Shown one piece after another: positions 6,849-27,936 of a DNA stretch of 64,000 bases. The DNA is taken from assembly GCA_019326865.1 (NCBI GenBank), contig GCA_019326865.1_4101.1; one strand, given 5' to 3'. The notes beneath the pieces were generated by a model. The model saw only the letters and a program-made list of their open reading frames with translations, was not told the origin of the DNA and did not search any database. The position numbers and the translations under genes are program-made. The DNA comes from a phage. Position 1 is the first letter of the stretch. Each line of letters starts with the position of its first letter.

Positions 6849-7964
6849 ATGTCTAAATTAGAAAAGCTTCTAAAAGAATCATCTCTTTCTGATGAGGCAA
6901 AACAGCTAATTCAGGAAGCATGGAATGAAGAAAAGAACACACTAGCCGCAGAGATGCGTGAAGAAATGAAAGGCCGTTATCAGCAAGATTTGGCTGAACT
7001 AACCGAAGGATTGAACACTATGGTTACTCAAGTCATTGCTGAAGAAATGGGTGCTGTATATGAAGAGAAAAAACGTCTTGTTGAAGATCGTGTAACTCTA
7101 CGTAAAACACTAAGTAATTTCTCTGCGTTTTCAAATTCTGTTTTGGCTGAAGAAGTTAAACAAATGCGTAAAGAGCGTAAGCATCTACATGAATGCATGG
7201 GTAAATTCGTTAATTTTTCTAACGGTATCCTAGCAGAAGAACTAAAAGAATTCCACACAGAAAAACGTCAACTGGTTGAAGCTCGTGTAAAATTACTTGC
7301 AGAAGGTTCACGTCAAATTGCTGAAGCTCGTAATAACTTCATCAAACGTACATCTGAAAGTGCTGCTAAATATATTGCAGAGACAACACAGAAGAATCTA
7401 TATGCGTTAAAACAAGATCTAGTGGAAGCGAAACAAAATATGTTTGGTCGTAAAATCTTTGAAGCATTTGCTCAAGAATTTAATGTCAAACAATTCAATG
7501 AAAATTCATTGCTACGTTCACTAACTGAAACAATTAAATCTAAAGAAGATGAAATTGATCAAGTTAAGCAAGAACTACATGAAACTGTTAATGCGGTCAA
7601 AGCTGCTAAAACTAAACTACGTATTATGGAAGATGCACAAGCCCGTAATGCGATTATGTCTGAACTAGTAAAACCACTAACTGCACAGCAAAAACAAATT
7701 ATGGAATCCCTTCTAGCAACTTCACCTACTGAAAAGCTTAAAGAAGATTTCAGTAAGTACCATAAGTCAGTACTTAACGGTACTAAAGTAAATGAATCTG
7801 CTACCACTCGTCAAGCAGTTCAGTCTTCCGCTAAGAAAACTCTTGCAGAAGGTAAAGTGATCACTGGCAACCGTCAGGCTATTGTTGAAAGCGAAGAAAT
7901 GACCGCTGACGATATGGCATTCCTAAAAGAACTCGATGTTCTTTCGGGTATCAATAAAAAATAA
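6849..7964 (+). CDS. gp22: prohead scaffold protein (gp22-like, coiled-coil)
   Basis: K/E/L-rich helical 371-aa ORF directly between protease and major capsid genes; RBS aaaggagag. Confidence 0.6.
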   Translation: MSKLEKLLKESSLSDEAKQLIQEAWNEEKNTLAAEMREEMKGRYQQDLAELTEGLNTMVTQVIAEEMGAVYEEKKRLVEDRVTLRKTLSNFSAFSNSVLAEEVKQMRKERKHLHECMGKFVNFSNGILAEELKEFHTEKRQLVEARVKLLAEGSRQIAEARNNFIKRTSESAAKYIAETTQKNLYALKQDLVEAKQNMFGRKIFEAFAQEFNVKQFNENSLLRSLTETIKSKEDEIDQVKQELHETVNAVKAAKTKLRIMEDAQARNAIMSELVKPLTAQQKQIMESLLATSPTEKLKEDFSKYHKSVLNGTKVNESATTRQAVQSSAKKTLAEGKVITGNRQAIVESEEMTADDMAFLKELDVLSGINKK

Positions 7965-9324: not shown

Positions 9325-9353
9325 TTGACAGCACTTAACAATTGTAGTATCAT
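9325..9353 (+). promoter_or_regulatory. sigma70-like promoter TTGACA-N17-TATCAT
   Basis: ttgaca at 9325-9330, tatcat at 9348-9353; sits upstream of the GTG start at 9388. Confidence 0.5.
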
Positions 9354-9387
9354 ACGTGTAAATAAAGAAAAGAACTCGGAGAAAATC

Positions 9388-10983
9388 GTGTTAGAAGAAA
9401 TCAAGAAGTTTTTATCAGAGAAAAATGTTCGTGGTGTTAAATCTGCTCTGCAAGCAAAATCTGTATACATTGAATTCCTGCGAGAGATGTTTGGTGATAT
9501 CGATCTTAATGAAATGATTTATATGGTATTGAATGATATTACTTCAGTGCCGAATGCTGAATGTGGTGACAAAGCTAAGTTTATAAGTATTACCGAAGGA
9601 TATTCTTACAAGTGCAATAAACCATTTCAAGGAAAAGGAAAATGCCTTATCTGTTGCTCCGCAGTTGCTAGGAAACGTAAAGAAACTTACAAAGAAAAAA
9701 CTGGTTATGATAACCCGGCACAGAATCCAGAAATTCAAAAGAAAATAGGGTATACCAATGAACAACGTTATGGCACTCGTATTGCTCAACAATCTGAACA
9801 AGTAAAGCAGAAATCAATAGAAACTAATATCAAAAAGTATGGCGTTGTTCATCCATCACAGTTGGAAAGTAATAAACAGCAACGTTTACAAACTGTACAA
9901 GAAAAGTATGGTATCAATAATGTATGGCAACTTAATAAAGGTCTTAGTGCACGTTATGAACAGTTTAAAACACGATTTGAACAGGATGGTAAATTTACTC
10001 TTTTAAGTGATGAATCCCATTATGATAATAGCAATGACGCAACTCATGCAATCATGCACTGGAAATGTAATGAATGTGGTAATGAGTTTGATAAAGTTGC
10101 TCTTTGCTTACGCTGCCCTAAGTGTGAACCATATTCATCCAGTACTGAAGAAGTTAATCTTTATAATTACATTACCTCTATCTATAGTGGTGTTGTTATT
10201 CAAAACAGCCGCAACATAATCAAAGGTAATGAAATTGATATTTTCATCCCAGAACTGAAACTTGGTATTGAGTTCAATGGTGAGTACTGGCATCGTGATG
10301 AAGTTCGTGGTAAAGACTATCATCAATCCAAATACTTCAAAATGAAGGAAGCAGGATACAAACTTATCACTATCTATAGTAATGAATGGTCAAATAAAAC
10401 TGAAATTGTTAAGAATCGTTTGAAAAGTTTGATTAGTGTGGATAGTAAAATCTATGCTCGTAAGTGTGAAGTTAGATTGGTTGTACATGAAGAATGTGAT
10501 AAATTTTTGTATGAACATCATATTCAAGGACCATGCCAATCATCAATCAAACTTGGACTTTACTATAATGATGATTTGGTTGCTTTGATGACATTTGGTG
10601 CACCACGATTTAACAAGCAGTATGAATATGAATTACTGCGTTATTGTTCTAAAGGAACAGTTGTTGGGGGTGCATCGAAACTGTTAAAACATTTTGAACG
10701 TATGTATCTTCCTAAATCTCTTCTTTCATACGCCGATATGAACTGGAGTACTGGTAATTTGTATGAAAAAATTGGTTTTACTTTAGAAGAAGTAACTCAA
10801 CCTGGTTATTTTTACTATGATAGAAAAAACGAAGTTGTTTATTCTCGCCATCAATGCCAAAAACAAAAACTTATTAAAAAATATAATTTTGATAGTTCTA
10901 TGACAGAGAAGGAAATGACAAAAGAATTAGGATACTTTAGAATCTATGATTGTGGTAACTTAGTTTATAAAAAGATTTACTAA
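9388..10983 (+). CDS. multi-domain putative nuclease, paralog 1 of 3 (Cys clusters, YGV repeats, Vsr/DUF559-like PD-(D/E)xK core, conserved C-terminal domain)
   Basis: GTG start with RBS ggaga 5 nt upstream; N-terminus VLEEIKKFLSEKN aligns with paralog 3 MIIDELKKFLKSKN; core motif IDIFIPELKLGIEFNGEYWH; C-terminal domain shared with 30327..31931 and 44978..46729. Confidence 0.7.
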   Translation: MLEEIKKFLSEKNVRGVKSALQAKSVYIEFLREMFGDIDLNEMIYMVLNDITSVPNAECGDKAKFISITEGYSYKCNKPFQGKGKCLICCSAVARKRKETYKEKTGYDNPAQNPEIQKKIGYTNEQRYGTRIAQQSEQVKQKSIETNIKKYGVVHPSQLESNKQQRLQTVQEKYGINNVWQLNKGLSARYEQFKTRFEQDGKFTLLSDESHYDNSNDATHAIMHWKCNECGNEFDKVALCLRCPKCEPYSSSTEEVNLYNYITSIYSGVVIQNSRNIIKGNEIDIFIPELKLGIEFNGEYWHRDEVRGKDYHQSKYFKMKEAGYKLITIYSNEWSNKTEIVKNRLKSLISVDSKIYARKCEVRLVVHEECDKFLYEHHIQGPCQSSIKLGLYYNDDLVALMTFGAPRFNKQYEYELLRYCSKGTVVGGASKLLKHFERMYLPKSLLSYADMNWSTGNLYEKIGFTLEEVTQPGYFYYDRKNEVVYSRHQCQKQKLIKKYNFDSSMTEKEMTKELGYFRIYDCGNLVYKKIY

Positions 10984-18088: not shown

Positions 18089-18820
18089 ATGGATCTACGC
18101 AACGTATTACGTGACCTTGTAAACACAACCAGTGGTATTGACTTCTCTTGTATTGCTGTAAGTAGTGAAGACCGTGGTGAAGGGCAACGTGTATATCTAG
18201 AAGCGTACACAGATGACCGAACTCTAGTGATGCGAGCATATACTAAAGAGGATGTTCCTGAAGTTCAGGGTCGCTTTGGGTTAGGAAATCTAGGTCTTCT
18301 TCAGGGTCTAATGTCTCTAAAAACATACAGTACTGAAGGAACAACAATCACGTCAAATGTCAAAGACGGATCTGTAAAAAGTCTAGCATTTAAATCTGAA
18401 GATGCAAGCACTACATTTATGGTACAAGCTGAAAAACTTATTCCAGTACAACCACGTTTTCATGAACAACCATATGACGTACAGGTTATTCCTAGTGCAG
18501 CAAAAGTTCAAGAACTAAAGAGTTTTTCTGGTGTATTTAAATCATTCAGTTCTCTCGTAACTCCGTATACTGATGGTGACACACTATACTTTCACGTTGG
18601 TGAGAAAAACAAAAGCAACCACGTTGGTTCACTAGCTTTTTCTAAAACTGATGGAGAATTGGGACTTGGATTTGGATATAATATTGATCGAGTACTTCAA
18701 GCACTATCTCGTGTCTCTAATGCTGAATCTGTATCACTTGGTATCACAAAAACTGGTATGTTAAATGTCACACTAGATACTGGAATTGCTGTATACAAAT
18801 TTTATGTAACTGGTTGCTAA
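18089..18820 (+). CDS. gp45: sliding clamp (T4 gp45-like), tentative
   Basis: N-terminus LRDLVNTTSGI resembles T4 gp45 LKNFATINSGI; similar length (243 vs 228 aa) and location next to the polymerase. Confidence 0.5.
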   Translation: MDLRNVLRDLVNTTSGIDFSCIAVSSEDRGEGQRVYLEAYTDDRTLVMRAYTKEDVPEVQGRFGLGNLGLLQGLMSLKTYSTEGTTITSNVKDGSVKSLAFKSEDASTTFMVQAEKLIPVQPRFHEQPYDVQVIPSAAKVQELKSFSGVFKSFSSLVTPYTDGDTLYFHVGEKNKSNHVGSLAFSKTDGELGLGFGYNIDRVLQALSRVSNAESVSLGITKTGMLNVTLDTGIAVYKFYVTGC

Positions 18821-18829
18821 TATAAATAA

Positions 18830-18850
18830 CGGGGAACAAGTTGTTCCCCG
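18830..18850 (+). terminator. hairpin after clamp gene (ggggaac / gttcccc)
   Basis: 7-bp GC-rich stem; downstream tract only moderately T-rich. Confidence 0.4.
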
Positions 18851-18885: not shown

Positions 18886-19092
18886 ATGCCATTATATACA
18901 TATCGTTGTGAAAAAGAAGAATGTAAACATAGTATGGAAAAAATTGTTAAAATTGCAAATCGTGATGAACCCCATGACTGCCCTAAATGTAATGGTAAAA
19001 AGACTATGAAGTTAGAAGTATTCACACCAGGTGATAAAGGTGCTAATCTTTATTTCCGTGGAAAATGGTTTGCAAATACTGGAGGTTACTGA
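18886..19092 (+). CDS. small Zn-ribbon protein (FmdB-like CxxC...CPxC)
   Basis: YTYRCEKEEC...DCPKCNG; 68 aa. Confidence 0.45.
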   Translation: MPLYTYRCEKEECKHSMEKIVKIANRDEPHDCPKCNGKKTMKLEVFTPGDKGANLYFRGKWFANTGGY

Positions 19093-19093
19093 T

Positions 19094-19393
19094 ATGAAAA
19101 TTAAAATGATTAATGATTACGTTCTTGTTCGTCAAATTGAAGCACAGAATAAAAGTTCTGGTGGTATTATTCTAGGGAATGTTGAGCCACCATGCATTGG
19201 TATGGTAATTTCCGTTGGTCCAGGTAAAGTTCTACCGAACGGACAACTAGCAGAGCATGATATTAAAGAAGGTGATATGGTTGTATTTGGACGTTCATCT
19301 TTGAACACCCCCCTAACTGAAGATCTTGGGGGTGGAGAAGACACATACTATGTAATGAAAATCGAAGAGATTTTTGGTAAGAAAAATGGCTAA
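19094..19393 (+). CDS. groES: GroES-family co-chaperonin (Hsp10 homolog)
   Basis: MKIKMINDYVLVRQIEAQNKSSGGIILG...GMVISVGPGKVLPNGQL...IKEGDMVVFGR...YYVMKIEEIFG follows the E. coli GroES pattern; RBS ggagg upstream of ATG 19094. Confidence 0.75.
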   Translation: MKIKMINDYVLVRQIEAQNKSSGGIILGNVEPPCIGMVISVGPGKVLPNGQLAEHDIKEGDMVVFGRSSLNTPLTEDLGGGEDTYYVMKIEEIFGKKNG

Positions 19394-20111
19394 AAATAAA
19401 TTTATACCATTTTGGATGATCCCTGCTCACTGGGGACTTTCTGGTAAGGCAAAAGAAATAGCCAAAGCATATTACTACAATGATGATTATGAAGCTGATA
19501 TGAAGATTGCAGAATTGACATATCTAACTCCATATGAAGTTGAAGTAGCACAATTGGATATCAAAAAGAAATATGGTGTAATAGAAGAGTTAGAATATCT
19601 AATTGCTATGCTAGATGTAGAATTGAAATATTCCAAAATCACTCGTGAACAGTATGATGTTAAAGTTCTTGATGCAAAATTGAGTACTGGTGCAATCACT
19701 GAAAAAGAATATGATATGGAAATCATCGAGCTAATGCCAGATGGTGATGAAAAAAGACTAAAGGCTATTGAATTTGCATATCGTTATGATGAAATCACAC
19801 AAAGTGAATATTCTAAGGAAATATACACACTTAGAAAAGAGCCTTGGATTGATTTGAATGTGGTTCTTGACCCTGAAACAAATGAAGTTGAGTTTGTGTT
19901 TGATTATAATGAATATTTCTGGAAAAAACTGAAAGCGGAAGGTCATCCAGGTAATGACGAAGAAGAAATTATCGATAATTTTGTTAGAGACTTAGGTCGC
20001 AAACTTGCTACAGATGATTTCAGTGATGATTATGACGCAAAGTTGGTGAGTGTGAACGAAGGATTAGACAAGCTACCTGGTTTACCTGAAGGGTTTCGTT
20101 CATATAGATAA
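19386..20111 (+). CDS. hypothetical protein
   Basis: ORF of ~240 aa; start ambiguous between 19374 and 19386. Confidence 0.45.
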   Translation: MAKNKFIPFWMIPAHWGLSGKAKEIAKAYYYNDDYEADMKIAELTYLTPYEVEVAQLDIKKKYGVIEELEYLIAMLDVELKYSKITREQYDVKVLDAKLSTGAITEKEYDMEIIELMPDGDEKRLKAIEFAYRYDEITQSEYSKEIYTLRKEPWIDLNVVLDPETNEVEFVFDYNEYFWKKLKAEGHPGNDEEEIIDNFVRDLGRKLATDDFSDDYDAKLVSVNEGLDKLPGLPEGFRSYR

Positions 20112-20117
20112 AATATA

Positions 20118-20148
20118 AAAAGGAGAGCGTGTGCTCTCCTTTTCTTTT
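20118..20148. terminator. bidirectional rho-independent terminator between convergent genes
   Basis: aggagagc-gtgt-gctctcct hairpin flanked by A-run upstream and T-run downstream. Confidence 0.7.

Positions 20149-21584: not shown

Positions 21585-27936
<6,352 letters not shown>

Follow-up and report, generated by a model that had tools for sequence, protein, structure and literature searches.

A GroES-type co-chaperonin gene in an Asteriusvirus jumbo phage, and its probable use as a lid for host GroEL

The co-chaperonin gene and its neighbourhood

The 64,000 nucleotide stretch of phage DNA analysed here, referred to as the window, contains a gene for a GroES/Cpn10-type co-chaperonin, which is the middle member of a three-gene unit (Table 1). 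With the stop codon counted in its coordinates, the reading frame consists of an ATG start, 99 codons in all, and the stop. The product (MKIKMINDYVLVRQIEAQNKSSGGIILGNVEPPCIGMVISVGPGKVLPNGQLAEHDIKEGDMVVFGRSSLNTPLTEDLGGGEDTYYVMKIEEIFGKKNG) has 99 aa, a mass of 10.7 kDa and a pI of 5.0. Both the coordinates and the 99-aa length given in the initial annotation agree with the reading frame and its translation.

Table 1. Features of the co-chaperonin locus and related genes in the window.
Feature	Coordinates	Strand	Basis and remarks
gp23-type major capsid protein, 391 aa	8056..9231	+	Pfam Gp23 302.9 bits; candidate client, inferred
243-aa 'hypothetical' ORF, PCNA-like	18089..18820	+	AlphaFold and Foldseek; lies two genes 3′ of the DNA polymerase
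GC-rich hairpin (CGGGGAAC-loop-GTTCCCCG)	18830..18850	.	Terminator scan; between the 243-aa gene and the zinc-ribbon gene
FmdB-type zinc-ribbon gene, 68 aa	18886..19092	+	PF09723, TIGR02605
Shine-Dalgarno GGAGG	19081..19085	+	8 nt 5′ of the GroES ATG; read from the sequence
GroES/Cpn10-type co-chaperonin gene	19094..19393	+	ORF, translation, Pfam, PHROG, PDB phmmer, AF2 and Foldseek
GGIILG codons, residues 23-28; G24-I25-I26-L27 the putative GroEL-binding mobile-loop tip	19160..19177	+	Alignment, conservation
Roof beta-hairpin codons, residues 44-58 (GKVLPNGQLAEHDIK)	19223..19267	+	Ungapped alignment to E. coli GroES 46-60
241-aa acidic protein, 28.3 kDa, RefSeq 'virion structural protein'	19386..20111	+	phrog_13349 394 bits
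Bidirectional terminator-like hairpin closing the three-gene unit	20117..20144	.	Terminator scan; UE-S1 annotates a terminator there

The DNA of the window is 99.2 % identical at the nucleotide level to Escherichia phage UE-S1 (358 kb) and approximately 91.7 % identical to 121Q, PBECO4, phAPEC6 and their relatives. The source is therefore an Asteriusvirus of the 121Q/PBECO4 group, a Rak2-like E. coli jumbo myovirus of about 350 kb to which no family is assigned. It had been described as a T4-like phage, which holds in so far as the window encodes a T4-type major capsid protein, portal (Portal_T4, 375.6 bits), prohead protease (Peptidase_S77) and family B DNA polymerase; taken strictly, an Asteriusvirus is not T4-like.

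The co-chaperonin is 100 % identical to the 'co-chaperone GroES' of UE-S1 (UTS53930), 97 % identical to its counterparts in 121Q, PBECO4 and phAPEC6, 76 % to that of RaK2, and approximately 56 % to those of CBB and GAP32. Between the window and 121Q there are 17 synonymous and three non-synonymous codon changes in this gene (dN/dS of 0.04), and the dN/dS against RaK2 is 0.17. Judged from these codon comparisons, the gene is under strong purifying selection.

In the GenBank record of UE-S1, the coding sequence is given a start 24 nt further 5′, at TTG 19070, making a product of 107 aa. The codon of RaK2 that matches TTG 19070 is an in-frame TGA, and in CBB there is a TGA directly before the gene's own start. 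Because the upstream extension is closed by stop codons in these two phages, ATG 19094 is the better start, and a longer N-terminus, whether from TTG 19070 or GTG 19031, was ruled out. On this comparison of sequences, the start that has been conserved is ATG 19094 with the GGAGG before it.

The unit consists of the zinc-ribbon gene, a 1 nt spacer, the co-chaperonin gene and, after an 8 nt overlap between its stop and the following ATG (ATGGCTAA), the gene for the 241-aa protein. It is conserved across Asteriusvirus, Alcyoneusvirus and Mimasvirus, and the same overlap is present in 121Q, RaK2, CBB and phAPEC6. The wider order, which is DNA polymerase, small ORFs, the 243-aa gene, zinc ribbon, GroES, the 241-aa gene, two virion genes on the opposite strand, and RNase H, is kept in 121Q, phAPEC6, RaK2 and CBB, with one extra gene in CBB.

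The small FmdB-like zinc-ribbon gene that was noted upstream of the co-chaperonin stands, since its product scores above the cut-off both for PF09723 (41.9 bits, cut-off 34.4) and for TIGR02605, the FmdB family zinc ribbon (44.2 bits, cut-off 31.3). The protein is conserved in 121Q, RaK2 and CBB, and Cys8, Cys13, Cys32 and Cys35 are invariant in four phages. The 241-aa protein is likewise conserved at the protein level across the phages compared; it had no match in Pfam, and a sequence search of the PDB was empty. It carries a strongly conserved motif, FDYNEYFWKKL..GHPGNDE.EIIDN. Among the rows of the phAPEC6 virion proteome considered here, gp210, gp211 and gp215c are present, without gp212c (the 241-aa orthologue) or gp213c, the GroES (PMC7247149). 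As far as those rows go, the gap for GroES fits a non-structural assembly factor.

Two hairpins flank the unit. The stem of that at 18830..18850 is kept in 121Q and phAPEC6, where the loops differ; RaK2 has a compensatory change in the stem (GGGGAAA..TTTCCCC). A weak T-run lies downstream, and this hairpin may be a leaky terminator or an element for RNA stability or processing. Directly upstream of it, at 18821 and 57 nt 5′ of the zinc-ribbon ATG, is a match to the T4-type late promoter, TATAAATA, conserved within Asteriusvirus only. This candidate was rejected; the window has no excess of the motif (six found, 10.8 expected), and the match is not kept in RaK2, so that it is no evidence of late expression. 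A scan of the window for sigma-70 promoters likewise found no enrichment (18 found, 16.4 expected).

Three other genes in the window merit mention. The 243-aa ORF is a 'hypothetical protein' in 121Q, RaK2, CBB, phAPEC6 and UE-S1, and had no sequence match in Pfam or the PDB. From end to end, its AlphaFold model (pLDDT 92, pTM 0.89) resembles PCNA sliding clamps, with TM-scores of 0.65-0.73 and 517 PDB matches at E<=1e-3, so that the protein models as a PCNA-like sliding clamp. According to the CBB paper, a gp45 homologue could not be detected in this clade (PMC5259590), and in the part of the phAPEC6 mass spectrometry considered here the orthologue, gp215c, is virion-associated (PMC7247149). 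In the large terminase ORF (23855..26512, + strand, 885 aa), matches to LAGLIDADG_3 (aa 289-350) and Hom_end (aa 283-363) precede the terminase ATPase domain, which is of T4 type (aa 429-636). The position of these homing-endonuclease domains in the sequence suggests an intein; the terminase of CBB has been reported as two ORFs (PMC5259590). Directly after the capsid gene, a 552-aa ORF (9325..10983, + strand) matches DUF7487 and, weakly and below the Pfam cut-off, the restriction-endonuclease-like REase_MTES_1575. On these matches, a mobile nuclease gene may have inserted itself into the head module here.

Family membership and conserved features of the protein

The product had been called a GroES-type co-chaperonin from its sequence pattern, and the profile and structural searches bear this out. 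It matches Pfam Cpn10 (PF00166) end to end, residues 2-96 lying on profile positions 1-92 of 93, with 61.9 bits (E 5.8e-17) against a gathering score of 21.1; as controls, E. coli GroES scores 104.3 bits and T4 gp31 scores 30.8 bits. It also matches phrog_3188, co-chaperonin GroES (97.2 bits, E 7.6e-28). The best phmmer matches in the PDB are Thermus Cpn10 (1.7e-12) and E. coli GroES (6.4e-10), BLASTP aligns residues 1-67 with E. coli GroES at 39 % identity over 67 aa (E 7e-15), and hhalign of a 20-homologue profile against E. coli GroES gives a probability of 98.5 %. An AF2 model built on the homologue alignment has a mean pLDDT of 76.7, and the top 27 matches to it in a Foldseek search of the PDB are all Cpn10/GroES chains (probability 1.00, TM-scores of 0.6-0.7). 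The size of the protein and its modelled structure agree with the single-domain beta-barrel of approximately 10 kDa that makes up the GroES fold. The protein is almost certainly a Cpn10 homologue.

All 15 NCBIfam GroES models (NF001526-NF001539 and NF011106) matched, with E-values from 3e-15 to 0.06, none of them above its curated cut-off; the best score is 56 bits, where the cut-off is 120. Scores this far below the cut-offs make the protein a divergent GroES. Together with a nearest solved relative that is from Thermus and not enterobacterial, this shortfall points to an old phage lineage rather than to a recent copy of a host gene. The C-terminal third in particular aligns poorly to bacterial GroES and contains a four-residue insertion, LGGG (residues 77-80), which is found in the GroES of Asteriusvirus and of RaK2-type phages.

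The sequence strings on which the first assignment had drawn are all in the protein: GGIILG at residues 23-28 (nt 19160..19177), GPG at residues 42-44 and YYVMKIEEIFG at residues 85-95. Within the first of these, G24-I25-I26-L27 aligns with G24-I25-V26-L27 of E. coli GroES at the same residue numbers. In E. coli GroES, I25-V26-L27 are the residues that contact GroEL. Among 20 homologues (56-90 % identity), G24, I25 and L27 are invariant and I26 is at least 90 % conserved. The AF2 model has a low-confidence stretch at residues 19-27, in which residues 19-21 and 24-27 have a pLDDT under 50; a flexible mobile loop would be expected to look like this. In a joint alignment, the loop is two residues shorter than that of E. 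coli GroES. There is no gap in the alignment of residues 44-61 with E. coli GroES 46-63, and the roof hairpin is thus kept.

There are 30 invariant positions among the 20 homologues, including, beside those of the loop tip, P33, C34, the turn at G42 and G44, H55, and YVMKI..FGK at the C-terminus. P33 and C34 (19190..19195) and, in the roof hairpin, H55 (19256..19258) are invariant in 20 out of 20 phage homologues and are not features of E. coli GroES.

Compared with bacterial GroES (E. coli P0A6F9; Thermus thermophilus Cpn10, PDB 1wnr and 4v4o), the phage protein is alike in length, fold, loop tip at residues 24-27 and roof hairpin. It differs in its shorter loop, which carries an invariant Pro-Pro-Cys, in the invariant His55 of its roof hairpin, in its divergent C-terminal third with the LGGG insertion and in a basic FGKKNG tail. 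Also, the gene does not share an operon with groEL, and a co-chaperonin gene without an adjacent groEL is usual in phages (PMC5649160). There is no substantive difference from the GroES of other Rak2-like phages (UE-S1, 121Q, PBECO4, phAPEC6, RaK2, CBB and GAP32), in which the neighbouring genes and the 8 nt overlap are as in the window.

Proposed action on host GroEL

A GroEL homologue was sought within the window and none was found. Likewise, E. coli GroEL was compared by tblastn with the phage collection, and Escherichia is not among the organism groups listed for the 252 records matched; the smallest group listed has seven records, and there are at least 33 Escherichia records of Asteriusvirus type. 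On the evidence of the window and the phage collection, a phage GroEL partner was therefore rejected for Asteriusvirus, and it follows that the phage GroES most likely acts on the GroEL of the host.

On the model of bacterial GroES, the protein would assemble as a dome of seven subunits, the flexible loops of which, through their G24-I25-I26-L27 tips, would dock on the apical domains of the GroEL ring of the host. The docked dome would close the folding chamber in an ATP-dependent cycle, and in this way the phage protein would supply, or replace, the lid on host GroEL during infection. The most probable use of the lidded chamber would be the folding of phage structural proteins. Compatibility of the divergent phage protein with E. 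coli GroEL is assumed here, and it is from analogy that we infer that the protein forms heptamers, that it binds GroEL and which protein is its client. It is likely that the protein is a lid for host GroEL that is used in the folding of phage proteins.

The leading candidate for the client is the 42 kDa gp23-type major capsid protein. In T4, folding of gp23 needs GroEL and the phage co-chaperonin (PMC3012670). That the capsid protein would be the main client of the phage GroES is, on this analogy, an evenly balanced proposition. According to the part of the phAPEC6 paper considered here, the T=28 capsid contains 1620 copies of the identical, 42 kDa capsid protein of phAPEC6 and 121Q (PMC7247149).

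The alternative that survives best is that the protein works independently of GroEL, as a dedicated assembly factor for the 241-aa protein or as a partner of the zinc-ribbon protein within the three-gene module. This would account for the tight coupling of the genes, with a 1 nt spacer and an 8 nt overlap, in an order conserved in three genera, for the clade-specific invariant P33, C34, H55 and FGK tail that bacterial GroES does not have, and for NCBIfam GroES scores below the cut-offs. However, phage genes often overlap, which is no proof of a physical partnership, and the G-I-I-L tip, located where E. coli GroES has it and flexible in the model, is hard to explain without GroEL binding. A role of this kind is therefore unlikely. 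There is a similarly small chance that in the Rak2 clade GroES, the zinc-ribbon protein and the 241-aa virion-associated protein make up a dedicated assembly module that is more than a spare lid. Such a module, which could be read from the invariant Pro33, Cys34 and His55, the short mobile loop, the basic C-terminal tail and the tight gene coupling, could retune host GroEL to phage clients, with a cycle timing or client preference unlike that of gp31, or could act partly without GroEL.

It is considerably less probable that the protein is a host-takeover factor, competing with host GroES to redirect GroEL or to block it for host proteins. The phage does have a lid and no chamber, and, in the passages considered here, T4 gp31 and RB49 CocO are able to replace GroES on GroEL (PMC5259590 citing Keppel, 2002; PMC3012670). 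Against this, the gene is located among structural and replication genes and not in an early host-takeover region, and there is no sign in the sequence of an inhibitory variant. Use as a lid for the folding of phage proteins thus remains the preferred reading, and its precedent is the co-chaperonin of T4.

Comparison with T4 gp31 and significance for jumbo phages

T4 gp31 and RB49 CocO (phrog_931; PDB 1g31 and 2cgt) share the basic fold of the phage GroES; they are phage lids for host GroEL with a gp23-type capsid protein as client, features that would extend to the protein described here by analogy. The initial annotation had the protein as a true GroES homologue, not of the gp31 type, and this subtype is upheld. 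Against phrog_3188 the protein scores 97 bits, where E. coli GroES scores 108 bits; against phrog_931, the PHROG of gp31, it and the E. coli GroES control both score 15.6 bits (E 0.023 for the phage protein), compared with 169 bits for T4 gp31. The probability from hhalign of the family profile is 2.5 % against gp31, compared with the 98.5 % against E. coli GroES. BLASTP gave no alignment to T4 gp31, for which the query was 100 % identical to the product of T4 gene 31, there were no gp31 chains among the PDB sequence matches, and no gp31-type gene was found within the 64 kb window. Membership of the gp31 family was rejected on BLASTP, PHROGs, hhalign and the PDB sequence search.

The earlier description of gp31 as a structurally distinct analogue of GroES does not hold. 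As gp31 itself matches Pfam Cpn10, and its structure 1g31 is found at rank 29 in the Foldseek list for the model, gp31 belongs to the GroES fold as a divergent member. A profile search placing the protein in the gp31 family, or outside Hsp10, had been named as what would refute the assignment. When run, it did neither, the Cpn10 match being well above the gathering score and that to phrog_931 only 15.6 bits. With gp31 inside the Cpn10 fold, such a check must be read as a choice between the GroES subtype and the gp31 subtype. Mobile-loop and roof-hairpin features define functional viral co-chaperonins and tell the GroES kind from the gp31 kind (Marine et al., 2017; PMC5649160). On the published description (PMC5649160) and the joint alignment, the mobile loop of gp31 is lengthened, its C-terminus is extended and it lacks a roof hairpin; none of this applies to the protein of the window.

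A second GroES paralogue, represented by gp131 of CBB (7407..7688), belongs to the Cpn10 family and has 44 % identity to Salmonella GroES. It is present in CBB, GAP32, BF, fHe-Yen9-03/04, the Erwinia SNUABM phages, XbC2, Hallingskeid and EJP2; a search with CBB gp131 did not find it in Asteriusvirus or RaK2-type records. This paralogue, which occurs in Mimasvirus, Eneladusvirus and related phages such as EJP2, is closer to host GroES and adjoins a tyrosyl-tRNA synthetase gene. The joint alignment has the roof hairpin deleted both in T4 gp31 and in CBB gp131, the latter through an eight-residue deletion.

It is thought that T4 needs gp31 because its 56 kDa gp23 wants a larger chamber (PMC3012670). 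That the phage GroES is likewise a gp31/CocO-type co-chaperonin, enlarging the GroEL chamber for an oversized capsid protein, could draw on the gp23-type capsid protein of this phage, on the fold that gp31 and GroES have in common and on the Pfam Cpn10 match of gp31. It is nevertheless extremely unlikely, given the phrog_931 and hhalign results, the lack of a BLASTP alignment, a mobile loop that is two residues shorter than that of E. coli and not longer, the retained roof hairpin, and a capsid protein of 42 kDa compared with the 56 kDa of T4 gp23. Equally improbable is a partnership with a phage-encoded GroEL in a complete viral chaperonin system, for although there are phages with a GroEL gene, and a few with both genes (PMC5649160), there is no GroEL-like ORF in the window, and Asteriusvirus is not among the matches of a tblastn search that picked up phage GroELs as divergent as 21-27 % identity.

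From the roof that is kept and the mobile loop that is two residues shorter, a chamber of the ordinary GroES size is expected for the phage GroES acting on host GroEL, rather than the enlarged chamber of gp31. An ordinary chamber should be sufficient for a capsid protein of 42 kDa.

The gene is already known: GenBank and RefSeq both annotate it, and it belongs to the core genes of the Rak2-like clade. The name 'co-chaperonin GroES' is used in RefSeq for 121Q (gp615, YP_009102202), PBECO4, RaK2, K64-1, GAP32, CBB, BF and fHe-Yen9-04, and the orthologues are labelled gp213c in phAPEC6, ORF104 in RaK2 and gp268 in CBB. In the XacN1 paper, GroES is among the orthologues conserved in the Rak2-like clade and absent from T4 (PMC5852040), and the CBB paper reports two GroES-like ORFs in CBB together with the T4/RB49 precedent (PMC5259590). 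More broadly, a co-chaperonin gene is present in 165 out of 2178 phage genomes (Marine et al.; PMC5649160). As the gene had already been named GroES and listed as a core gene of the clade, it carries little weight as a discovery. No experimental study of a Rak2-like GroES was found in the literature.

E. coli makes its own GroES, and the advantage of a phage copy could lie in its dosage after host shut-off, in its client specificity or preference, or in host range or independence from variation in host GroES. Supply is one possible reason for a phage GroES, the T=28 capsid needing 1620 capsid subunits. The puzzle is that a capsid protein of 42 kDa should fit the ordinary GroEL-GroES chamber, yet the phage keeps an ordinary-looking GroES under strong purifying selection. 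An explanation would be informative about jumbo phages, be it on their chaperone supply, their client specificity or their host range.
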